From positions 3,596-67,595 of the forward strand of contig CAYTUK010000005.1 in NCBI GenBank assembly GCA_964441285.1: a DNA stretch of 64,000 bases. The letters run 5' to 3'. Source of the stretch: an uncultured Thiotrichaceae bacterium (GTDB lineage: Bacteria; Pseudomonadota; Gammaproteobacteria; SZUA-229). Below the pieces are notes generated by a model that saw only the letters and a list, made by a program, of their open reading frames with translations, did not search any database and was not told the origin of the DNA. Position 1 is the stretch's first letter; each line of letters opens with the position of its first letter. This document shows positions 2,548 through 62,572 of this stretch, one piece after another. The translations under genes were made by a program, and so were the position numbers.

Positions 2548-2675
2548 ACTAACAGTACAGATGAAAAGGATACTCATTGTTCAAGACCGTTAGCCGCAAG
2601 AATGCGGGTGTCGAGTCTACAGAGATATATTCACCACAGTCTTAAACAATGAGTATTCTTTTCATTCGTTTCAGC
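2548..2675 (+). repeat. Palindromic extragenic element, full copy D (arm 2560..2587, core, arm 2639..2666)
   Basis: Left arm gatgaaaaggatactcattgttcaagac pairs with right arm gtcttaaacaatgagtattcttttcatt at 25 of 28 positions. The core is cgttagccgcaagaatgcgggtgtcgag. The termini are ctaacagtacagatg on the left and cgtttcagc on the right. Confidence 0.8.
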
Positions 2676-2699
2676 AATAAAACACTAAGGAGCAATAAA

Positions 2700-3437
2700 A
2701 TGGATTTAACAGGATGTCTATCAAACACAGGAAATAAAACAAGCATTACTGCATTTCTTGCCATGAGTTCACTAACTCTGAGTTCACTAATTTTTACCGC
2801 AGAGGCAAATGCCGCCATTATTATCAATGAAGTTGACTATGACCAACCCGGAAAAGACCGTGCCGAGTTTATTGAACTGTTTAATAATGGGAGCCATCGT
2901 GTTTCGCTTGAAGGGTATAGCATTAAGCTAATAAATGGCGCAAAAAATACCACTTACCGGACCATTAACCTGGATACATTCAATATGAATGCAGGTGGTT
3001 ATTTTGTTATCTGTGGTGATTCCACTCGAGTTGAAAACTGTAATTTTGATTTCACAAATAAAACCGGCTGGATACAAAATGGCGCTCCTGATGCACTGGC
3101 ATTATATGATCAACGGCATATTGTGGATTCGCTATCGTATGAAGGCAGCCTGTCGCCATATACAGAAGGCGCGCCTGTTATTGCCAAAGACAGCAACAAA
3201 CTCATCACTGACCTGTCTCGCCTGCCAAACGGGATTGACAGTAACGTCAATCGTACTGACTTTAATTTAGGATGTATCACACCGGGTACAGCCAACATTG
3301 CGGGAACAGGTAACTGTTCAACAGTGAGTGTGAGTGCAGTTCCTGTTCCTGCAGCTATCTGGCTATTAAGTTCAGGTTTGGCTGGTTTTATAGGTATCGG
3401 TTATAAAAAGAAGATAAATAAAACAGTTACATCCTGA
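2700..3437 (+). CDS. Secreted lamin-tail-domain (LTD) protein with a C-terminal VPLPA/PEP-CTERM-type sorting signal (putative exosortase substrate)
   Basis: An AAGGAG RBS lies 8 nt before ATG 2700; the six-frame ORF start at 2649 runs through the repeat element. There is an N-terminal hydrophobic signal (…AFLAMSSLTLSSLIFTAEANA). The LTD-like segment is IINEVDYDQPGKDRAEFIELFNNGS. The C-terminus is VPVPAAIWLLSSGLAGFIGIGYKKK, that is a motif followed by a TM helix and a basic tail. Confidence 0.8.
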   Translation: MDLTGCLSNTGNKTSITAFLAMSSLTLSSLIFTAEANAAIIINEVDYDQPGKDRAEFIELFNNGSHRVSLEGYSIKLINGAKNTTYRTINLDTFNMNAGGYFVICGDSTRVENCNFDFTNKTGWIQNGAPDALALYDQRHIVDSLSYEGSLSPYTEGAPVIAKDSNKLITDLSRLPNGIDSNVNRTDFNLGCITPGTANIAGTGNCSTVSVSAVPVPAAIWLLSSGLAGFIGIGYKKKINKTVTS

Positions 3438-6458: not shown

Positions 6459-7622
6459 ATGCTGTCTGATCTTTATATTGGCCTCATGTCCGGTACCAGT
6501 GTAGACAGCATTGATGCCGTGCTGGTTGATTTTTCTGATGCCTCCCCGCATCTTATTGCCAGCTTAAACAAAGACTGGCCACTAGAAATACGTAATGCAA
6601 TTTTTGCCACACGCTACCTGACCGATAATGAACTCAGTTCACTCCAGCAACTCGATAGTAAAATTGGAGATATTTTTGCACAGACAACAAATGCATTATT
6701 AAAACAGGCCGGTATTACTACAACAGCAGTCAAAGCTATTGGTAGCCACGGTCAAACTATTCGTCACCAACCAAACGCAGCCAATCCATTTTCTCTACAG
6801 ATTGGTGATGCTACACGCATCGCTCAGCAGACAAACATCAATGTGGTTTCAAATTTTCGTACTGCTGATATTGAAATGGGGGGCCAGGGTGCACCGCTCG
6901 TCCCGGCATTCCACCAGGCGGTTTTCCACAGTGATAAAAAGAATCGGGCCATTGTAAACATTGGCGGCATTGCCAATATTACTGCCTTACCCAAACAACG
7001 AAACAAACCCGTGATCGGCTTTGATACTGGCCCTGGCAACAACTTAATGGATGCCTGGAGCACAAGACATAAACGAGGAAATTATGATAAAAATGGCGAT
7101 TTCGCTGCCAGTGGCACAACCAATACGCACTTATTAGCCAAGTTGTTACGGGAAAACTATTTTCAGTTGGCGCCACCTAAAAGCACCGGTTTTGAACTTT
7201 TCAATTTGACCTGGCTGGATAAATATCTTGCCAGCTCGCCCAGTACTGCTTTAAAAAGTACTGAGGTGCAAAGCACATTGTGTGATTTAACAGCGATATC
7301 TATCATCCAGGCAATTAGTCAGTCTGCTGAAAACACAGATGAAATATATATTTGTGGCGGCGGTGTACACAATAAAGAACTAATGCGACGATTGCAGATG
7401 CTGACTAAATTACCTGTGACTTCGACACAGCAGCTCGGCATCCACCCCGACTGGGTTGAAGCCATGACTTTTGCCTGGTTAGCAAAGCAGAGAATAAAAG
7501 ACTTACCTGGAAATCTGCCTGCAGTTACCGGCGCAAAACATAGCGTTGTATTAGGGAATATCACCTACCCAAACGCAACCCCTTCCAGGCCAAACCCGCC
7601 TGAGATAAAAAATAACACATAA
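6459..7622 (+). CDS. anmK: Anhydro-N-acetylmuramic acid kinase
   Basis: MLSDLYIGLMSGTSVDSIDAVLVDF is the AnmK N-terminal signature. The length is 387 aa. Confidence 0.93.
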   Translation: MLSDLYIGLMSGTSVDSIDAVLVDFSDASPHLIASLNKDWPLEIRNAIFATRYLTDNELSSLQQLDSKIGDIFAQTTNALLKQAGITTTAVKAIGSHGQTIRHQPNAANPFSLQIGDATRIAQQTNINVVSNFRTADIEMGGQGAPLVPAFHQAVFHSDKKNRAIVNIGGIANITALPKQRNKPVIGFDTGPGNNLMDAWSTRHKRGNYDKNGDFAASGTTNTHLLAKLLRENYFQLAPPKSTGFELFNLTWLDKYLASSPSTALKSTEVQSTLCDLTAISIIQAISQSAENTDEIYICGGGVHNKELMRRLQMLTKLPVTSTQQLGIHPDWVEAMTFAWLAKQRIKDLPGNLPAVTGAKHSVVLGNITYPNATPSRPNPPEIKNNT

Positions 7623-36838: not shown

Positions 36839-37303
36839 TTACGCTTTAGCTTTTTTACGACTATGGCGCTTGCCTGGCTTACTTGCTTTGTTAATTTTAG
36901 CCATTTCTTTCTTCGTCCAGCTTTCAGCAAAGCGCATAACCGCTGCTTCTTTGCGTTCCGCCATCTTCAGTAACATTTCCTGACGTTTCCTGGATTCAGC
37001 TACTTCAGCCTTTGCGGCGGCGAGTGCAGCTGTGGTTGCAGCTACGTGCTCACGCATTTTCTGCTTAGCAGCAGACGCGATGGCATTTTTCTTCGCCGCA
37101 ACAACCTTTTTCTTCGCTACTAAAGCTTTCTTCTTAACTGCGGCAACTTTTTTCTTCGCCGCAGCATTTTTTGCAAGTTTTTTATTCACTGCTTTTTTTG
37201 CCGTTGTTTTTTTCTTAACTGTCTTTTTATTTACTGGTGTTTTCTTTTTAACTGCACGTTTTGTCGTCATTTTTTTCTTGCTTGCTGTAGAAGTTTGCGC
37301 CAT
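36839..37303 (-). CDS. Histone H1-like Lys/Ala-rich nucleoid-associated protein (AlgP/BpH1/Hc1-like repeats)
   Basis: KKKTPVNKKTVKKKTTAKKAVNKKLAKNAAAKKKVAAVKKKALVAKKK repeats followed by an Ala-rich helical tail. Confidence 0.75.
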   Translation of the reverse strand: MAQTSTASKKKMTTKRAVKKKTPVNKKTVKKKTTAKKAVNKKLAKNAAAKKKVAAVKKKALVAKKKVVAAKKNAIASAAKQKMREHVAATTAALAAAKAEVAESRKRQEMLLKMAERKEAAVMRFAESWTKKEMAKINKASKPGKRHSRKKAKA

Positions 37304-42924: not shown

Positions 42925-43131
42925 GCCCCCTTACTTAAGGAAGCTCTGATTAATCCATAAGACTGGATCTTACCGATCGAATTAATAATCGCTTCTCTTA
43001 AATAATAAAATCTCTCGTCTGTACACCTGATACAAACGTCGTAATCCACAGCAGCCAAACAACACTTGCTGTATAATTCGTCAGTTCAAATTTCTGCTGT
43101 TAAACAGTTAACCAAGCATTCCGAGTCTGTC

Positions 43132-45987
43132 ATGGAAAAAACATACAATCCGCAATCCATTGAGCGAAAATGGTACAAAATCTGGGAGGAAAACAACTAT
43201 TTCAGCCCCGAGAGTCACCCGGATGATTTATGCAATGATGATAAACGCGAAAACTTCTGCATTATGATCCCCCCTCCCAATGTCACCGGCCGGTTGCACA
43301 TGGGGCATGCATTTCAGGACACTATTATGGACACAATGGTTCGCTATCACCGCATGAAAGGTGACAATACCCTGTGGCAGGTTGGCACTGACCATGCGGG
43401 TATTGCGACACAAATGGTAGTGGAACGCCTGATTAATGCAGAAGGCAAAACTCGCCACAATTATGGCCGAGAAAAATTTATTGACCGCATCTGGCAATGG
43501 AAAGAAGAATCCGGCAATACCATCACCCAGCAATTACGTCGCATGGGCGCATCGCTGGACTGGTCACGCGAACGCTTTACTCTGGATGAAGGACTCTCTA
43601 CAGCCGTTAATGAAGTATTTATACGCCTGTACGAAGAAGGTCTCATCTATCGCGGTAAACGGCTGGTAAACTGGGACCCCGTCCTGCACACCGCAGTTTC
43701 TGATCTGGAAGTATTATCCAGCCAGGAAGACGGTCACATGTGGTACATGCGTTACCCACGCAGTAATGGTGCAGGGCATGTCGTGGTTGCAACCACCCGC
43801 CCTGAAACTATGCTAGGCGACTGTGCGGTAGCAATTAACCCTAAAGATGAACGCTATTCCTACCTGCTTGGCGAGTTTCTTGAACTCCCGCTGACCGGGC
43901 GTAAAATCCCCGTCATCGCCGATGAACATGTCGATCCAGAATTTGGTACTGGCTGTGTAAAGATCACCCCGGCACATGATTTCAACGATTACCAGGTCTG
44001 GAACCGGCATAAAAATAAAAATGAAATTCGCGATCTACCCAATGGGGGTTTAATTAATATCTTTACCCATCATGCCGCCATTCGTGATAACTGTGATGAT
44101 AGCAATCATATTATCCCGGATCAGTATATTGGCCTGGATCGTTATGCCGCACGTAAAAAAATAGTTGCTGACCTTGTCGCTGCCGGTTTAATGGAAAAAA
44201 TTGACAACCATAAACTGATGGTACCTCGCGGTGATCGCTCAGGTGCCGTCATTGAACCCTATCTCACCGACCAGTGGTATGTAAAAGTTGAACCCCTGGC
44301 CAAGCCTGCAATTGCTGCGGTTGAAAAAGGTGATATTAAATTTATTCCAGACAACTGGAAAAACACCTATTTTGAATGGATGAACAACATTGAAGACTGG
44401 TGCATCTCCAGACAAATCTGGTGGGGACACCGAATCCCCGCCTGGTATGATGAAATAGGCAATGTTTATGTTGGTTACGATATCAATGACGTGAGAGCAA
44501 AAAACAGATTACCTGATGACTTTCTACTACAGCAAGATGAAGATGTGCTTGATACCTGGTTCTCCTCAGCATTATGGCCATTCTCAACCCTGGGCTGGCC
44601 AGAGAAAACCGCAGAACTAGAAAAATACTACCCGACCAACGTACTGGTCACTGGATTCGACATTATTTTCTTCTGGGTCGCCAGGATGATTATGATGGGG
44701 ATAAAATTTATGGGCGATGTGCCTTTTCGTGAAGTTTATGTGCATGGTTTGGTGCGCGATGCGGAAGGTCAGAAAATGTCCAAGTCCAAAGGTAATGTCC
44801 TTGACCCCATTGATGTCATCGATGGTATTGGCCTGGAAGCACTGGTAGCCAAACGTACCAGCGGTGTCATGCAACCACATATGATTGAACGCGTGGAAAA
44901 ACTCACCCGTAAAAATTTTCCAGAAGGTCTAGCACCTTTTGGTACCGACGCATTGCGTTTCACCTTTGCTTCACTGGCTACCACCGGGCGTGACGTAGTG
45001 TTTTCCCCAGGACGGATCGAAGGCTACCGCAATTACTGCAATAAACTATGGAATGCCACCCGCTATGTTCTGATGCAAACGGAGAACAAAGACACTGGTA
45101 TTGGTATCGACATTGGCAGTAGCGAAATTGAATACTCACTGGCTGATCGCTGGATTATTTCAACACTGCAACAGCTGGAACAGCGTGTGGAACAACATAT
45201 CCAACATTCACGCATCGACCTGCTGGCACAGGAAATTTATAGTTTTGTCTGGGAAGATTATTGCGACTGGTATCTGGAATTATCCAAACCAATATTGTTT
45301 GATGACACCACCTCCGAACGAGCACAGCGTGGCACCCGGCAAACACTGGTTTGTGTACTCGAAACCCTGCTCCGACTAAACCACCCCATTATTCCATTTA
45401 TTACCGAAGAATGCTGGCAACGTATAGCACCACTGGCAGGCAAAACCGGCAACAGTATTATGTTGCAGCCTTTCCCCAAACCAGATATAAGTAAAATTGA
45501 CACTGACGTAGAAACTGAACTGGAATGGGTGAAAACTTTTGTTAGCGGTGTGCGCCGGATTCGCTCAGAGATGGATATTGCTCCCAGCAAACCATTAGCC
45601 TTATTGTTGCAAAATGCCAGCGAAAATGACCAGACCTGTTACCAGAGGAACCGGAAATTTATTGAAACTCTGGCTAAAGTTGAGTCCAGTTTATGGTTAA
45701 CCGAAAGTGACAACGCGCCAGAATCAGCGACTGCTCTGGTTGGGGAAATGAAGATTCTAATCCCCTTTGCTGGTTTAATTGACAAAACAGCTGAACTCGC
45801 GCGTCTAGAAAAGGAAATTGGCAAATATCAGATAAATATTGATAAAACCACTGCAAAGCTGGTGAACAAAAACTTCATCGAAAAAGCCCCGCCAGTGGTC
45901 GTAGAAAAAGAGCGCAACCGACTGGCTGAAATGAGCAAAGCAGTGGCGCAGTTAAAAGAACAGATGAAAAAAATTCAGGGCCTATAG
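43132..45987 (+). CDS. valS: Valyl-tRNA synthetase
   Basis: [15 protein letters not shown] (HIGH), KMSKSKGN, and a C-terminal coiled coil. The start is ATG 43132 ([11 protein letters not shown]). Confidence 0.95.
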
Positions 45988-55680: not shown

Positions 55681-57714
55681 TTAACCAAGCAATGCTTTTA
55701 ACCCGTCAAGATGCGCTCTGCCTTTATCTTTAGTACTCTTTTCTTTTGCTCCTTTGCCACCCTGCCATTCAATTTCATCTTCTGGTAATTCTTCTAAAAA
55801 ACGGCTGGGCTCACAGAGCGTTTTTTCACCATAACGTTTGCGTACACGCGCCATCGTCATGGTTAAACTTTTCTCTGCGCGGGTAATTCCAACGTAGGCG
55901 AGACGGCGCTCTTCTTCAACATTATCTTCCGCAATACTGACCGCATGCGGCAATAACTCTTCTTCAAAACCAACCAGGAATACATGTGGAAATTCCAGAC
56001 CTTTTGCCGCATGTAACGTCATTAGCTGCACCGCATCCTGATCTGACTCATTTTCATTGCGCTGCAATATATCCATCAATGACAGTTGTGCCATTAGTTC
56101 TGCCACCCCTGCCTCAGCATCTTTTTTCTGCATCCGCTGTAACCATTCAAGCAGATCCATCACATTTTTCCAGCGCCGCTCGGCGGTTTCTTCATCTTTA
56201 CTTTGCTCACGTAACCAATGTTCGTAATGCAGGTCATCCAGCAATTGTTGCGTAATAACCGTTGCTGATTCATTTTCAGCCCGATAAGCAAGACGCAATA
56301 ACCAGTCGCTAAATAAATTCAGATTTTTATAAGCAGCGACGGAAACGTTACTCTCAAGCCCGACTTCGCTACAGGCGGTCAACATGCTCACTTCACGCCT
56401 GGTCGCGTATTTACCGAGCTTTTCCAGCGTAGCTGCACCAATACTTCTGCGTGGTGTGTTAATTACACGCAAAAATGCAGCATCATCATCCGGGTTAGCT
56501 AACAGACGCAGGTAAGCAACAATGTCCTTGATTTCGGTACGTTCAAAAAATGAAATGCCCCCGCTGACCACATAAGGTATATGCATAGCACGAAGATAAC
56601 GCTCAAACACGCGGGCCTGAAAGTTACCCCGATACAAAATCGCATAATGCTTAAATTTTGTCTGGCATTGAACTCGATGCGACTGTATTTCCACGCAAAC
56701 TCGCTCAGCTTCATCTTCTTCGCTGTTGCACTGAATTATTCGAGCTGCATCACCCATACCCAGCTCACTCCACAGACGTTTTTCATAGACATGTGGATTG
56801 TTCTGGATAAGACTATTAGCGAGTTTAAGGATGCGCGCACTGGAGCGATAATTCTGTTCCAGTTTAATCAGCTTCATGCGCGGAAAATCTTTTGCCAGTT
56901 GCACCAGATTTTCTGGCTGCGCCCCACGCCAGGCATAAATTGACTGATCATCGTCGCCCACCGCAGTTAGACAATGACGCGCACTCGCCAGCAGCTTGAC
57001 TAATTCATACTGCATGGCATTGGTATCCTGATATTCATCCACCAACAGATAATGAATATTGCTCTGCCATTTCTGCAAAATTTCGGGCTTAATCTTAAAC
57101 AGATGCACGGTTTGCAAAATCAGATCATCCAGATCAAAGGCATTGTAGGCATGCAACTGGCGCTGATAGCTGACATAGAGTTTCGCAATCTCCCGCTGCC
57201 GGTCATCTTCAGCAACTTTAAATGCCTGATCCGGCATTACGCCATTATTTTTCCACTGGCTGATTTGCCCGTGTGCCGATTCCGCTGCGTCCAGTCCACG
57301 CTCACCGGTGACTTTAAGCAGTTCAGATAACACCGTAATGCAATCGCCATGCGCAAACACTGAAAACCCAGCCTTATAGTCCAGCGCTGTATATTCTTTC
57401 TGTAAAATACCTAATGACAAGCGATGAAAGGTAGAAACCCGTAGGCCACGACTGGCTTTATTCCCCACCAGCTTTTTAATCCGCACCTTCATTTCCTTTG
57501 CCGATTTATTAGTAAAGGTAACTGCCGCAATACGGTTCGGACTGATGCCGCATTCACCCAGCAAATAGGCAATTTTTTCAGTAATCACTCGGGTTTTACC
57601 ACTACCGGCACCCGCTAGAACCAGCATCGGACCATCAATATAATGAATGGCTTCAAGTTGCTGGGGATTTAGCTGTGGTTTGTTGTGAAACTGATTTTGT
57701 TGGGGTGTATTCAA
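55681..57714 (-). CDS. rep: ATP-dependent DNA helicase Rep (UvrD/Rep SF1 family)
   Basis: LNPQQLEAIHYIDGPMLVLAGAGSGKTRVIT, a length of 677 aa that is close to Rep, and SF1 motifs I–VI. Confidence 0.85.
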   Translation of the reverse strand: MNTPQQNQFHNKPQLNPQQLEAIHYIDGPMLVLAGAGSGKTRVITEKIAYLLGECGISPNRIAAVTFTNKSAKEMKVRIKKLVGNKASRGLRVSTFHRLSLGILQKEYTALDYKAGFSVFAHGDCITVLSELLKVTGERGLDAAESAHGQISQWKNNGVMPDQAFKVAEDDRQREIAKLYVSYQRQLHAYNAFDLDDLILQTVHLFKIKPEILQKWQSNIHYLLVDEYQDTNAMQYELVKLLASARHCLTAVGDDDQSIYAWRGAQPENLVQLAKDFPRMKLIKLEQNYRSSARILKLANSLIQNNPHVYEKRLWSELGMGDAARIIQCNSEEDEAERVCVEIQSHRVQCQTKFKHYAILYRGNFQARVFERYLRAMHIPYVVSGGISFFERTEIKDIVAYLRLLANPDDDAAFLRVINTPRRSIGAATLEKLGKYATRREVSMLTACSEVGLESNVSVAAYKNLNLFSDWLLRLAYRAENESATVITQQLLDDLHYEHWLREQSKDEETAERRWKNVMDLLEWLQRMQKKDAEAGVAELMAQLSLMDILQRNENESDQDAVQLMTLHAAKGLEFPHVFLVGFEEELLPHAVSIAEDNVEEERRLAYVGITRAEKSLTMTMARVRKRYGEKTLCEPSRFLEELPEDEIEWQGGKGAKEKSTKDKGRAHLDGLKALLG

Positions 57715-57823
57715 AATGGATGGTTCAAAGTGGCGTTAAACTAACAAACAGGTAGTTTACTGGAAGGTGGTGGAAAATGGATTGTTTTTTGAGTGAATTT
57801 TTTCCAGCTAGAATGATCGAGCC

Positions 57824-57909
57824 ATAATAACCGGACTATAATAACTGGACTATAACAACCGAACTATGACAGTCTGACTATAACAGCCTGGCTAACAGCC
57901 CTGCTACAG
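57824..57909 (+). repeat. Six to seven tandem direct repeats of a 12–14-bp unit (consensus CYGGACTATAACA) ending 8 nt before the ampD start codon
   Basis: gccataataa|ccggactataataa|ctggactataacaa|ccgaactatgaca|gtctgactataaca|gcctggctaaca|gccctgctacag. Confidence 0.75.
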
Positions 57910-57917
57910 TTAATAAT

Positions 57918-58475
57918 ATGAAAATAGATGCCAGTACCGGTCTGCTAACTCCCTGTAGCCAGATACTCTCACCCAATAGAGATCTGCGCCCCAAAAACCA
58001 GATCATCGACCTTATTGTTATCCACAGTATCAGCCTGCCTCCGGGAAAATATGGCGGCGATGCCATTGAACGTTTCTTTTGTAATCAACTACCCGCTGAA
58101 GAGCAGCCTTATTTTCAGCAAATCCATACACTGAAAGTCTCCGCACATACCCTCATTAAACGCGATGGCAGCATTGTTCAGTTTGTACCCTTTCATGAAC
58201 GCGCCTGGCATGCTGGTCGCTCACGCTATCAGGGACGCGAACATTGTAATGATTTCTCTATCGGCATAGAGCTCGAAGGCACCGATACAGAAGCATTCGA
58301 AAACAGCCAGTATACCCAACTGGCGCGGCTGGTGTTAGCACTGGAAGCAACCTATCCGAGCATTGATCGTGGTAGTATTACTGGTCACAGTAATATTGCG
58401 CCCGATCGAAAAACCGACCCCGGCAGTGGTTTTAACTGGCAGAAAATGAAAAAACTTTTACTCAGAAATACATAA
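57918..58475 (+). CDS. ampD: 1,6-anhydro-N-acetylmuramyl-L-alanine amidase AmpD
   Basis: DLIVIHSISLPPGKYGG…, the amidase_2 zinc ligands. Confidence 0.9.
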   Translation: MKIDASTGLLTPCSQILSPNRDLRPKNQIIDLIVIHSISLPPGKYGGDAIERFFCNQLPAEEQPYFQQIHTLKVSAHTLIKRDGSIVQFVPFHERAWHAGRSRYQGREHCNDFSIGIELEGTDTEAFENSQYTQLARLVLALEATYPSIDRGSITGHSNIAPDRKTDPGSGFNWQKMKKLLLRNT

Positions 58476-58529: not shown

Positions 58530-59372
58530 ATGGCGTTGATTTCAATCATACTTGGCCTGATCCTTGATCGCATGTTCCAACACCTGCATGAACTGCGCGA
58601 TATGGTCTGGTTCGAATATTATTCACAAAAAATTTGCCAGTTAACCCGCCACCGGCTACCACCCTTGCAATTTATTTTAATCATCGTACCACCACTGGCC
58701 GTCATCCTTTTTTTACAAATTTCATTATTCAGCTTCTTTTTTAATCTGCCTTACTTTATCTTTGGCATCATTGTTTTTATCTACTGCCTCGGACCATCCT
58801 GTTTAGCAACGGATATTGATGCCTATCTACACGCGCGTGAAATCGGCGATGATGATGAAGCCTTTCACTATGCCGGAGCAATTACAGAACGCGCCGCATC
58901 AACTTCGCCAGATCAACAAACTCGAGATGTGACTCATGCGATATTGTATGTTGCCAATGAACGTATTTTTTCTGCTATTTTCTGGTTTGTTATTCTTGGC
59001 CCTTTTGGCGCACTGCTGTATCGACTTACCTCCCAGATAAGTAAACAGATTGAACATACCGAACTGGCCGATTTTGCCGAGTATGTCCAGGCTATTATGG
59101 CTTTTATTCCAACGCATATGCTGGCTGCCGGTTACGCTTTCACCGGCAATTTTGATGCTGCTTTCCACGCTTATAAAGACCGCTTAAGGTCACCCGACAT
59201 ATCCAACAGTAACTATGATGTGCTGGTTTCAACCGGTACTGGTGCCATGAAAAACATGCAAATGGAGGATGAAATTGCTGGTATCCATGCAGCACAGGCG
59301 CTAGTAATGCGATCAGTCATGGTATGGATAGCCGTGCTGGCTATTTTGACATTGGGCGGCTGGTTAAAATAG
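58530..59372 (+). CDS. ampE: AmpE membrane protein
   Basis: MALISIILGLILDR…, a polytopic protein following ampD. Confidence 0.85.
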   Translation: MALISIILGLILDRMFQHLHELRDMVWFEYYSQKICQLTRHRLPPLQFILIIVPPLAVILFLQISLFSFFFNLPYFIFGIIVFIYCLGPSCLATDIDAYLHAREIGDDDEAFHYAGAITERAASTSPDQQTRDVTHAILYVANERIFSAIFWFVILGPFGALLYRLTSQISKQIEHTELADFAEYVQAIMAFIPTHMLAAGYAFTGNFDAAFHAYKDRLRSPDISNSNYDVLVSTGTGAMKNMQMEDEIAGIHAAQALVMRSVMVWIAVLAILTLGGWLK

Positions 59373-59409: not shown

Positions 59410-60000
59410 ATGACAACCTGCATTGATGTAATTCGACATGGTGAACCAGAAGGCGGACATCGCTACCGTGGTCACAACATAGACGATCCCTTAACCGAAC
59501 GGGGCTGGTTACAAATGCGCTCAGCAGTCCCCAAAAAACCACTCTGGCAACATATTATTTCTTCACCATTAAAACGTTGCCTGGAATTCAGTAAGGAGCT
59601 GGCTGAAGATTTACAAATCCTTTACACCATTGATGACCGAGTAAAAGAAATAGGTTTTGGCTGCTGGGAAGGAAAGACACCGGGTGAAATTATTGCTCAG
59701 GACAGTGATGCGCTGAATCATTTTTATCAGGATCCGGTAAATCATCGTCCGGCAGGAGCCGAACCATTAGAGATCTTTTCAAAGCGTGTGTGGCAGGCAT
59801 ATCAGTCAATTGCAAAAGAGCATGAGGGTAAACATGTGCTTATCGTTGCCCATGCTGGTGTTGCGCGCGCCATCACTGCAAATATTCTACGCATGTCGCT
59901 GGATGATGTGTATAGCCGATTACGCATTGAATATGGCGGCATAATTACTAGCTCAGTGGAAACAGGCCTAGCACCGAAACTGATTATTCAACGCACTTAA
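59410..60000 (+). CDS. Histidine phosphatase family protein (phosphoglycerate-mutase/CobC-like)
   Basis: The RHG motif (VIRHGEP) and a downstream catalytic His (VAHAGV). Confidence 0.8.
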   Translation: MTTCIDVIRHGEPEGGHRYRGHNIDDPLTERGWLQMRSAVPKKPLWQHIISSPLKRCLEFSKELAEDLQILYTIDDRVKEIGFGCWEGKTPGEIIAQDSDALNHFYQDPVNHRPAGAEPLEIFSKRVWQAYQSIAKEHEGKHVLIVAHAGVARAITANILRMSLDDVYSRLRIEYGGIITSSVETGLAPKLIIQRT

Positions 60001-60558
60001 ACAAGTTTCATAAATACTCATCGCGAATTTATCAAGCGACTCTAATCGTGCGTTTAAAAGCGAAATGGTCACTGCCGCAAGCAGGGAAACGATAACAGAA
60101 GCAAATATATCCATAGGGAAATGGACACCAATAAATACACGCGAAACACCGCCGATAAAACCGGAAACAAGCAGTATATATCCCAGCATTCCAGTTGGCT
60201 TATTAAGAAATAGTGAAATTGCGATAGAAAGCATAAATGTCGTGTGATCAGATGGCATTGATGAATCAGCTACGTGATGAATTAATGTCGTACCCAAATT
60301 TTCCATAAATGGGCGCGGATGAAAGTAAACAGATGAAATAGCAAGGTTAATAAAAAGTCCAAGTATCGCTGAGTAACAGGCATGCAACAGGGCAACTTTT
60401 TTCTCTGCATTTTGCTTAAACCACAGGTAAAGCAAAATAATGATGAAAACATATGGCAAATACTCAGCAAGACTTACCGCAATAACATCAATAATTTTGC
60501 TGCTCCCAGCATATTGATTAATGGCTAAAAATAGTTTTATATTCAACTGTTCTATCAA
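59968..60558 (-). CDS. PAP2-family phosphatase (YbjG/undecaprenyl-diphosphatase-like)
   Basis: PAP2 motifs …HPRP…, SMPSDHT and …GVHFPMD. The 3' end overlaps the convergent neighbour by 33 nt. Confidence 0.75.
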   Translation of the reverse strand: MIEQLNIKLFLAINQYAGSSKIIDVIAVSLAEYLPYVFIIILLYLWFKQNAEKKVALLHACYSAILGLFINLAISSVYFHPRPFMENLGTTLIHHVADSSMPSDHTTFMLSIAISLFLNKPTGMLGYILLVSGFIGGVSRVFIGVHFPMDIFASVIVSLLAAVTISLLNARLESLDKFAMSIYETCLSALNNQFRC

Positions 60559-60941: not shown

Positions 60942-61913
60942 TTGAATCGCCTTACTCAACTTAAACTATGGCTCGAGTCTATTGAGGAAAATACCTTTAC
61001 CGATATTCAGCACGCCTCGGCCGATGCCAGCTTTCGCCAGTATTTTCGGGTTTTTAATATAAAAGAAAACCGCCACTATATCGTCATGGATGCACCTCCG
61101 AAAAAAGAGAACTGTCACCCTTTTGTGCATATCACTGAGCTAATACGCAATGTTGGTGTCAATGCTCCCCGCATATATGCACAGAATATTTCAGCGGGGT
61201 TTCTATTACTGGCCGACCTAGGTAACCGACCTTATCTAGATGAATTAAACAATAGCACCGCAGAAAATTTATATTCTGATGCCATTAACGCACTCATAAA
61301 AATGCAATCAATTAAGGCTATTCTGCCCGCTTATGACGAGCCGTGTTTACAGCGTGAAATGAATCTATTTGAAGTCTGGTACCTGAAACGCCACCTTAAT
61401 GTACGTATCAGTGCCACACAAAAAGAACAACTTAACCACATTTTTAAATTACTCATCAGTAATGCGCAGGAGCAACCACAGGTATTCGTACACCGTGATT
61501 ACCATTCACGCAACCTGATGATAACGGATACCAGTAACCCAGGGGTAATTGACTATCAAGATGCCGTTATCGGGCCTATAACCTATGATCTTGTATCCCT
61601 GTTCAAGGACTGCTACATAGCATGGCCAGCAGAAAAAGTGAAAACCTGGTTAGCACTCTATCTCAAACGTCTAACCATTTCTTATTCTATTACACCACAA
61701 ACACTGCAACGCTGGTTTGATTTAATGGGCGTGCAACGTCACCTTAAGGTACTGGGTATTTTTTCCCGGCTGAATTATCGTGATGGCAAAACCCACTATC
61801 TCAATGACCTGCCGCTGACTTTAAACTATCTCACTACGACCTGTGGACAATATGACGAACTACAGCCTTTAAAACGGTTGCTCGAAGAAACAACACTAAA
61901 AGCAGCAACATGA
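60942..61913 (+). CDS. amgK: N-acetylmuramate/N-acetylglucosamine kinase AmgK (APH-like phosphotransferase)
   Basis: An APH-fold (…VHRDYHSRNLM…IDYQDA) adjacent to MurU. It has a TTG start with AGGAGA 5 nt upstream. Confidence 0.8.
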   Translation: MNRLTQLKLWLESIEENTFTDIQHASADASFRQYFRVFNIKENRHYIVMDAPPKKENCHPFVHITELIRNVGVNAPRIYAQNISAGFLLLADLGNRPYLDELNNSTAENLYSDAINALIKMQSIKAILPAYDEPCLQREMNLFEVWYLKRHLNVRISATQKEQLNHIFKLLISNAQEQPQVFVHRDYHSRNLMITDTSNPGVIDYQDAVIGPITYDLVSLFKDCYIAWPAEKVKTWLALYLKRLTISYSITPQTLQRWFDLMGVQRHLKVLGIFSRLNYRDGKTHYLNDLPLTLNYLTTTCGQYDELQPLKRLLEETTLKAAT

Positions 61914-62572
61914 ACGTTATTATTCTGGCTGCTGGACGTGGTGAACGTTTACGCCCGCTAACTGACACAACACCAAAACCTTTACTCAAAGTCGGTGGAA
62001 AATCATTGATTGACTACCACCTGATTAATCTGGCATCCGCCGGTTTCAAAAAGATTATTATAAACACCGCCTGGCTGGCAGAAAAAATTCATCAGACACT
62101 GGGGGATGGAAGTCAATATGGCATTCGCCTTGTCTATTCAGACGAAGGTGAGGCACTGGAGACAGCGGGAGGAATCATAAAGGCGTTACCGCTGTTAGGC
62201 AAATCACCTTTTCTGGTTATCAATGCTGACATCTGGAGTGACTTTGATTTTGCTTCAATTCAACCACTTGAAGCAGGTATTCAGGCAAATTTAATTTTAG
62301 TCAATAACCCGACACATCATCCTGAAGGTGACTTTTCCATCACTCATAATTTATTGAGCAATCACAACAAACCTAACTATACCTATAGTGGTATTGGTGT
62401 CTATTCACCACAGTTTTTCAATGACTGTAAACAGGGGAAATTAGCACTTTCCCCCTTGTTAAGAGATAAAGCCGATCACAAGTTGATCACTGCGCAGCAC
62501 TATATCGGTAAATGGACAGATGCAGGGACCATTGAACGCTTACACTATCTGGATAATTGTCTTCGAACTTAA
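61910..62572 (+). CDS. murU: N-acetylmuramate-alpha-1-phosphate uridylyltransferase MurU
   Basis: ILAAGRGERLRPLTDTTPKPLL, a nucleotidyltransferase. It overlaps amgK by 4 nt (ATGA). Confidence 0.82.
   Translation: MNVIILAAGRGERLRPLTDTTPKPLLKVGGKSLIDYHLINLASAGFKKIIINTAWLAEKIHQTLGDGSQYGIRLVYSDEGEALETAGGIIKALPLLGKSPFLVINADIWSDFDFASIQPLEAGIQANLILVNNPTHHPEGDFSITHNLLSNHNKPNYTYSGIGVYSPQFFNDCKQGKLALSPLLRDKADHKLITAQHYIGKWTDAGTIERLHYLDNCLRT

Follow-up and report, generated by a model that had tools for sequence, protein, structure and literature searches.

The DNA analysed here, a stretch of 64,000 nucleotides from an uncultured Thiotrichaceae bacterium that we call the window, contains ampD at positions 57918-58475 of the plus strand. 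Its product, a 1,6-anhydro-N-acetylmuramyl-L-alanine amidase of 185 aa, matches the NCBIfam equivalog NF008758 over residues 4-181 with 269.3 bits, against a cut-off of 143. An ampE-like gene of the CobD/AmpE family (58530-59372, plus strand; 120 bits, below the AmpE equivalog cut-off of 238) is co-oriented with ampD, and the two genes probably form one operon. Divergent from ampD lies rep (55681-57714, minus strand), which encodes the DNA helicase Rep (TIGR01074, 940 bits) and whose TTG start was inferred from the family-model alignment (model positions 1-667 from residue 14). The spacer between the divergent rep and ampD genes measures 203 nt, and it is this spacer that holds the tandem repeat array with which we are concerned.

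The neighbourhood of the array comprises the rep helicase gene, ampD, ampE, a phosphatase gene, a PAP2 phosphatase gene, amgK and murU. The window carries a near-complete peptidoglycan-recycling set that includes the AmgK-MurU bypass, with anmK at 6459-7622, the PAP2 undecaprenyl-diphosphate phosphatase gene at 59968-60558 and amgK and murU at 60942-62572. No ampC, ampR or other β-lactamase gene was seen in the window. An earlier reading of this DNA, made from the sequence only, had suggested that the array could tune β-lactamase induction through ampD; with no ampC or ampR in the window, and with the peptidoglycan-recycling genes anmK, amgK and murU as neighbours, we do not retain that link. 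The AnmK, AmpD and AmgK-MurU set points instead to peptidoglycan recycling as the relevant pathway. The window is ordinary chromosome, and its genes include those for glnS- and tyrS-type synthetases, anmK, metG, the rnf operon, parC/parE, lptFG and pepA, together with valS, gatAB, mreBCD, feoB, rep, ampDE, amgK and murU; gatC was called on a matching contig of another strain (L078). We also observed an ORF of 262 aa (2649-3437, plus strand) with a Lamin Tail Domain (PF00932, E = 1.8e-17), which is uncommon among the housekeeping genes there.

The array extends over approximately 57804-57909 and consists of about eight head-to-tail units, all given here on the plus strand, with a period of 14 nt that drops to 12 and then to 11 nt at the 3' end. 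The lag-14 periodicity starts at 57803. Two degenerate 5' units, tCCAGCTAGAATGA and tCGAGCCATAATAA, occupy 57804-57830 and contain the -10-like hexamers TAGAAT (57809-57814) and CATAAT (57823-57828). They are followed by the best-preserved unit, U1 (CCGGACTATAATAA, 57831-57844), which is bracketed by 7-nt ATAATAA direct repeats, and then by U2 (CTGGACTATAACAA), U3 (CCGAACTATGACAG) and U4 (TCTGACTATAACAG), which together span 57845-57886. The last two units, U5 (CCTGGCTAACAG, 12 nt) and U6 (CCCTGCTACAG, 11 nt), are decayed and shortened and fill 57887-57909; after U6 come TTAATAAT and the ampD ATG at 57918. The only perfect TATAAT of the window's allele, at 57837-57842, lies within U1, most units carrying TATAAC or TATGAC, in which the conserved final T is absent. 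No convincing -35 element accompanies any unit of the array.

Tandem Repeats Finder (TRF) reports a period of 14 at 57824-57867 (3.1 copies, 86% matches, score 67) and a second period-14 call at 57848-57894 (score 52), decaying to period 12 at 57881-57906. When the whole window was scanned for self-matches at lags 8-24 over 70 positions, the 52 matches found at lag 14 from 57803 were the best of the 64 kb; in 200 dinucleotide-preserving shuffles the best self-match had a mean of 35.9 (sd 1.3) and a maximum of 41. The ampD array is therefore the strongest short-period tandem repeat of the window, and its head-to-tail copies of one unit stand well above chance, as is expected of a variable-number tandem repeat (VNTR). 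The other notable tandem repeat of the window, with a period of 21 nt and 3.7 copies (37086-37163 and 37205-37236), lies inside a Lys/Ala-rich ORF of 154 aa (36839-37303, minus strand) whose AKKKV-type heptad repeats resemble histone H1 and which has no Pfam or NCBIfam match.

These results amend the sequence-only reading in several respects. All the repeat units that it listed are present at the positions it gave, and the end of the array 8 nt before the ATG at 57918 is borne out; its count of six to seven units, however, is too low by the two more degenerate 5' units, which bring the total to about eight, and the array begins not at 57824 but some 27 nt of degenerate units further upstream. 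The period is not about 13 bp at helical-turn spacing but 14 nt, or approximately 1.33 helical turns, and then 12 and 11 nt. It is correct that no obvious ribosome-binding site lies between the array and ampD, but this is nothing special to ampD, most of the window's 48 long ORFs (at least 150 aa) having no Shine-Dalgarno motif upstream. The regions upstream of these ORFs are rich in A; TTG and GTG are common start codons among the longest-ORF calls, and a number of starts may have been called wrongly.

An exact-protein look-up of AmpD retrieved the identical protein on one NCBI contig (L001, from GCA_006240815.1) and on three Logan contigs (L002, L003 and L004). L001 contains three copies of CCGGACTATAATAA against one in the window, the remainder of the spacer being identical, and over 5852 aligned bp the two sequences are 99.8% identical, with 13 SNPs and a single 28-nt gap as the only indel. 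L002 (SRR6439356) is 100% identical to the window and has one U1 copy. The remaining two contigs, L003 and L004, start inside the array. Since all 31-mers in Logan contigs are distinct by construction (PMC12424806), we simulated the k=31 de Bruijn graph for one to four copies of U1 and for mixtures of these, and the simulation reproduces the first nucleotides of both contigs to the base. The start of L003 is predicted only with an allele of at least three copies and no one-copy allele, and that of L004 (SRR32234003) only if one-copy and multi-copy alleles coexist. The match between simulated and actual contig breaks indicates at least two further samples with expanded alleles, and the SRR32234003 sample appears to hold mixed alleles; co-occurring strains would look alike in such data. 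The Logan runs represented here (L002-L004 and L073) come from neighbouring accessions (SRR32234002/SRR32234003 and SRR6439355/SRR6439356), as might be expected of bacteria sequenced together with related hosts or samples.

The evidence for polymorphism comes in its entirety from short-read assemblies, namely one NCBI assembly and the Logan contigs with their break points, and tandem repeats are a classic source of assembly collapse, so that the copy differences might be short-read errors at an array of fixed length. We consider this highly improbable. Ordinary Illumina reads exceed the longest periodic run, which in L001 is about 50 nt, and assemblers collapse repeats rather than invent copies, whereas L001 has more copies than the window. 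In L002, unique 31-mers span the one-copy junction; in two other samples, the contigs break, to the base, at the points that multi-copy or mixed alleles would impose; and a between-species difference of 28 nt recurs in three independent assemblies. The NCBI assemblies concerned (GCA_006240815.1, GCA_006243245.1 and GCA_006243105.1; contigs L001, L074 and L075) are very fragmented whole-genome shotgun sets, and unannotated contigs are the only form in which this species and its sister species were found.

As a control, we compared the window with L078, a second contig of GCA_006240815.1 that was found by an exact-protein look-up of MreB and has the array outside it. Over 15.5 kb, L078 shows 17 substitutions and one 6-nt indel, the only indel in this comparison: an in-frame (TGGTAT)n tract at 45096-45107, within valS (43066-45987, plus strand), has two copies in the window and three in L078. 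Over the 21.3 kb compared in all, the two strains thus differ by 30 SNPs and two indels, both of them tandem-repeat slippage events. Only two or three array alleles have been observed in this species. Searches for further ones by exact-protein look-up of AmpE returned the same NCBI contig only, and the AmpD clusters at 100% and at 89% identity have one member each. A metagenome scan with two adjacent units (GACTATAATAAYYKGACTATAA) gave one match, on an unrelated AT-rich contig with eukaryote-like ORFs (L077), which we dismissed as chance.

A sister species, whose AmpD is 89% identical (P0002) and whose DNA is about 85% identical, carries an array at the homologous site. It reads tCCGGCTATAATAA, tCGAGCCATAATAA, TCTGACTATAATAA, TCTGACTATAACAA, CCTGGCTAATAA and CCCCACTATAAT, followed by TCATAAT and the ATG, and is identical in three independent assemblies. 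Compared with that of the window, it is without U2 and U3, a difference of exactly 28 nt (alignment A1), and at the position of the units at 57804-57830 it has CCGGCTATAATAA, which is closer to the unit consensus. The array therefore shows two independent 28-nt indels, which distinguish strains in one case and species in the other, and the flanks are unchanged on each occasion; whole-unit indels between constant flanks are the signature of slipped-strand mispairing or of unequal recombination between units. From these observations, we regard it as highly probable that the sequence before ampD is a real and polymorphic tandem repeat. The sequence-only reading had proposed a slipped-strand region of variable copy number as one of its two explanations; the length polymorphism in whole-unit steps, with one against three copies of U1 in the strains compared, supports that proposal directly.

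Beyond the sister species, the nearest relatives that carry a name are metagenome-assembled genomes of unclassified Gammaproteobacteria or Thiotrichales, with at most 72% identity. We ran TRF on the 500 nt upstream of ampD in 68 distant loci (identity of at most 70%) and found no comparable array. Judged from these comparisons, the array is older than the two species yet confined to this lineage. What the relatives do have is a single hexamer: in five of the six nearest relatives checked, one perfect TATAAT lies 6-7 nt before the ampD ATG, arranged as TATAAT-gacata-ATG in L005, TATAAT-cacccc-ATG in L006, TATAAT-accccc-ATG in L079, tgtTATAAT-accggtc-ATG in L080 and tgtTATAAT-accagcc-ATG in L082. 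In the exception, L081, another gene lies upstream and the TATAAT element is missing. Because the upstream genes differ among the loci that have the hexamer, its conservation is not merely a matter of shared flanking DNA. The sister species, too, has TATAAT-tcataat-ATG. In L080, rep and ampD are divergent as in the window, with a spacer of only 106 nt that contains one TATAAT, and alignment A2 places the lone TATAAT of L080 and of L082 opposite the 5'-most unit of the array, whose hexamer reads TAGAAT in the window's version and TATAAT in that of the sister species.

The proximal counterpart of this hexamer in the window would be TACAGT (57905-57910, plus strand), which stands 7 nt before the start codon (TACAGT-taataat-ATG), retains three positions of a -10 hexamer, the T, the A and the last T, and is assigned its putative function by comparison. 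A TATAAT placed 6 or 7 nt from the ATG suits a leaderless or near-leaderless promoter, an interpretation that we draw from established promoter geometry; a -10 hexamer at this leaderless-type distance is kept in L005, L006, L079, L080, L082 and the sister species and is weaker in the window. We considered leaderless initiation as a genome-wide habit and rejected it: counted by eye, TANNNT occurs 6-7 nt before the start in only about three of the 48 ORFs, which by our own estimate is roughly the expectation from base composition. The best sigma-70-like match of the intergenic region, TTTCCA-N16-CATAAT (57801-57828, plus strand), has 9 of 12 consensus matches, and its CATAAT is itself part of a repeat unit; the sister species retains it as TTTCCG-N16-CATAAT. 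Outside the array, the block TTTACTGGA (57754-57764) does not vary among the window, the sister species and the relatives L080 and L082, whose AmpD identity is about 72% (alignment A2). On the minus strand this site reads TAAACT in the window and TAAAAT in the relatives, and the block likely holds the -10 element of rep, for which TAAACT is the candidate.

Direct repeats upstream of a gene may also be binding sites, and the sequence-only reading had accordingly put forward cooperative binding of a regulator. Under such an explanation, ampD, rep or both would be controlled by a transcription factor, a response regulator or a nucleoid protein binding cooperatively to the units, and the core GACTATAA, present in four units and common to the sister species, is what might be expected of a binding site. 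Iterons and the direct repeats of response regulators are helix-phased at about 10.5-11 or 21-22 bp. The ampD array resembles them in having several short direct repeats in a regulatory region; however, they are helix-phased and stable in number and come with a cognate binding protein or an origin, and none of these features is found at the ampD array. A 14-nt period places successive sites about 120 degrees apart on the helix, before giving way to 12 and 11 nt; the units decay in the direction of ampD, and their number differs both between near-identical strains and between sister species. Neither does the unit mark a regulon, as had been considered possible, in the 64 kb searched: it shows no enrichment outside the array, with 29 matches at up to three mismatches against 24.6 expected, only one outside site, within rep, at up to two mismatches, and no enrichment of the 9-nt core elsewhere in the window. 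One loose, isolated match precedes the M23-peptidase/anmK operon and none lies upstream of amgK. The flanking genes encode no DNA-binding regulator, the array has no inverted repeats, and relatives have no array altogether. Taken together, the period, the unstable number of units, the failure of the unit to recur and the lack of a nearby regulator or origin make regulator binding very unlikely. A replication origin with iterons was likewise considered and rejected, the GC skew being uniformly negative with no switch, the context that of an ordinary chromosome and Rep a chromosomal helicase; no tRNA or integrase context was seen near the array.

We instead interpret the units in the light of the promoter that the relatives keep. 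Each full unit shows the arrangement TATAAT, six bases and an A (TATAAT-aaccgg-A), and 14 nt is the distance between successive A positions of this kind, which are putative start points. The units thereby repeat the geometry of the relatives, a -10 hexamer, about 6 nt and an A, and we therefore read the array as a reiterated core-promoter module. Our preferred hypothesis, to which we assign a probability of approximately 0.6, is that the array is a lineage-specific, slippage-prone VNTR that reiterates the ampD core-promoter module; the narrower proposition that the array derives from that module we hold to be somewhat better than an even bet on the sequence comparisons above. We envisage that a -10 hexamer, a discriminator of about 6 nt and an A were copied head-to-tail, giving six copies in the sister species and eight to ten in this species. 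The first copy would have kept the upstream context, a T-rich tract and TTTCCA-N16-CATAAT, and the last copy the correct distance to the ATG; the gene-proximal copies would have decayed and lost bases, while the 5' copies, the best preserved, would still be expanding and contracting. A similarity of the unit to the start-codon region (ATATGAAAA) leaves the boundaries of the segment that was originally duplicated ambiguous. The ATG of U3, which opens a three-codon mini-ORF (ATG ACA GTC TGA, 57863-57874) that is probably incidental, is consistent with a relationship of the unit to the start-codon region.

If the array arose in this manner, the 7-nt ATAATAA repeats on either side of U1 could be where slippage acts. 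Each change in copy number would add or remove perfect TATAAT hexamers, and each unit would displace the conserved promoter context upstream of it by 14 nt relative to the ATG, and from these two effects we infer that copy number may alter the start sites of ampD-ampE transcription and the frequency of their use, as well as the length of the leader. That leader would be unstructured and A-rich, and the outcome would be a heritable and reversible tuning of the level of AmpD (and AmpE) and of the flux through peptidoglycan recycling. In sigma-dependent promoter-proximal pausing, -10-like sequences in the early transcribed region hold sigma-70 back. More copies could lower output in this way, through -10-like sequences that are transcribed early, or by way of a longer leader; they could equally raise it, as extra start modules do in mycobacterial promoter repeats (PMC12817950).

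Whether the array does anything at all is a separate question, and a length-variable slippage repeat might persist simply because it is harmless, with no effect on the expression of ampD-ampE. By manual count in alignment A1, the aligned array is about 85% identical between the two species, against about 85% for the flanking genes; it is diverging at the genomic background rate and therefore gives no sign of purifying selection on the unit sequence. The 3' units are decaying and have suffered small deletions. The other indel between the strains, (TGGTAT)n in valS, is plain slippage as well, and with both strain indels being repeat slippage, slippage may simply be this genome's way of making indels. 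The array separates the ATG from the conserved promoter context upstream, at a place where the relatives keep a precisely positioned TATAAT, and this position speaks against neutrality; 98-126 nt inserted there are unlikely to have left the 5' ends of the transcripts as they were. Furthermore, the polymorphic unit carries the only perfect TATAAT, and both species have retained the array across approximately 15% DNA divergence. We judge a wholly neutral minisatellite to be unlikely, though credible. As to a measurable effect of the array on ampD-ampE expression, the sequence evidence leaves us with roughly balanced odds.

Initiation at TTTCCA-N16-CATAAT would make the array the 5' leader of the transcript, and the leader might then act through its structure, as a riboswitch, an attenuator or an RNase target, comparable to the hairpin of the H. 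influenzae hmw genes. Folding predictions speak against this: the leader with one U1 folds at -21.7 kcal/mol, with a z-score of -0.09 relative to shuffles, and the three-copy leader has a z-score of -0.79. The array is free of inverted repeats, and the whole window gave no Rfam match. We find a structured leader scarcely credible.

A full-text literature search found nothing relevant on tandem-repeat arrays at ampD, and parallels must be sought at other genes. Intergenic VNTR loci in Coxiella and Legionella serve for typing by multiple-locus VNTR analysis (MLVA) and are usually without a link to promoter elements. They share with the ampD array units of minisatellite size, imperfect copies and copy differences between strains; however, they are typing markers, whereas the ampD array appears to be built from the gene's own -10 module. 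In H. influenzae, a 7-bp repeat, (ATCTTTC)n, lies between promoter and start codon of hmw1A and hmw2A, and more repeats lead to less expression (PMC2424069), an action for which RNase III and a long 5'-UTR hairpin, formed with a G-rich partner, are required (PMC12721329). The ampD array has the same location between promoter and start codon, varies likewise in copy number between isolates and would also be 5' UTR if the distal promoter is used, but the hmw repeats are 9-28 perfect 7-bp copies, and the ampD array consists of 8-10 degenerate 14-nt units with no predicted structure.

The array comes nearest to promoter tandem repeats (PTRs), or VNTRs, a class that the hmw repeats exemplify and to which the PTRs of M. 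tuberculosis at lpdA-glpD2, cysG-efpA and dop (PMC12817950) also belong. The mycobacterial repeats have units of 54-58 bp upstream of leaderless genes and vary between strains and within populations, and for the lpdA repeat an effect on expression has been shown experimentally (PMC12817950). Like the ampD array, they are imperfect copies of a promoter segment, located a few to a few tens of bp before a gene of leaderless type; they differ by whole units among close strains; and a graded, reversible change of promoter output has been proposed for them. There are also differences: the mycobacterial units, at 54-58 bp, are whole promoters, whereas those at ampD, at 14 nt, amount only to a -10-like hexamer and its discriminator, and the host there is an actinobacterium with other downstream genes, whereas here it is a gammaproteobacterium in which such an effect is proposed.

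Strains of this uncultured lineage can readily be typed by the array, and assemblies at k=31, by breaking at repeats of this kind, reveal mixtures of alleles. Should ampD indeed be tuned by copy number, we would have here the first example found of a slippage-variable promoter repeat that controls a peptidoglycan-recycling gene, and a compact gammaproteobacterial counterpart of the mycobacterial promoter tandem repeats. A further proposal, which on the present sequence data we consider decidedly unlikely, is that the array is a contingency locus for peptidoglycan recycling, at which slippage of the unit with TATAAT, occurring frequently, generates subpopulations with different levels of AmpD. 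Were this so, the subpopulations would have different cytosolic pools of anhydromuropeptides, and the array would act as a 'promoter-module rheostat', every 14-nt unit supplying its own -10 element, discriminator and start point, allowing the organism to hedge its bets in cell-wall turnover, in β-lactam tolerance or in the release of muropeptides toward a host.
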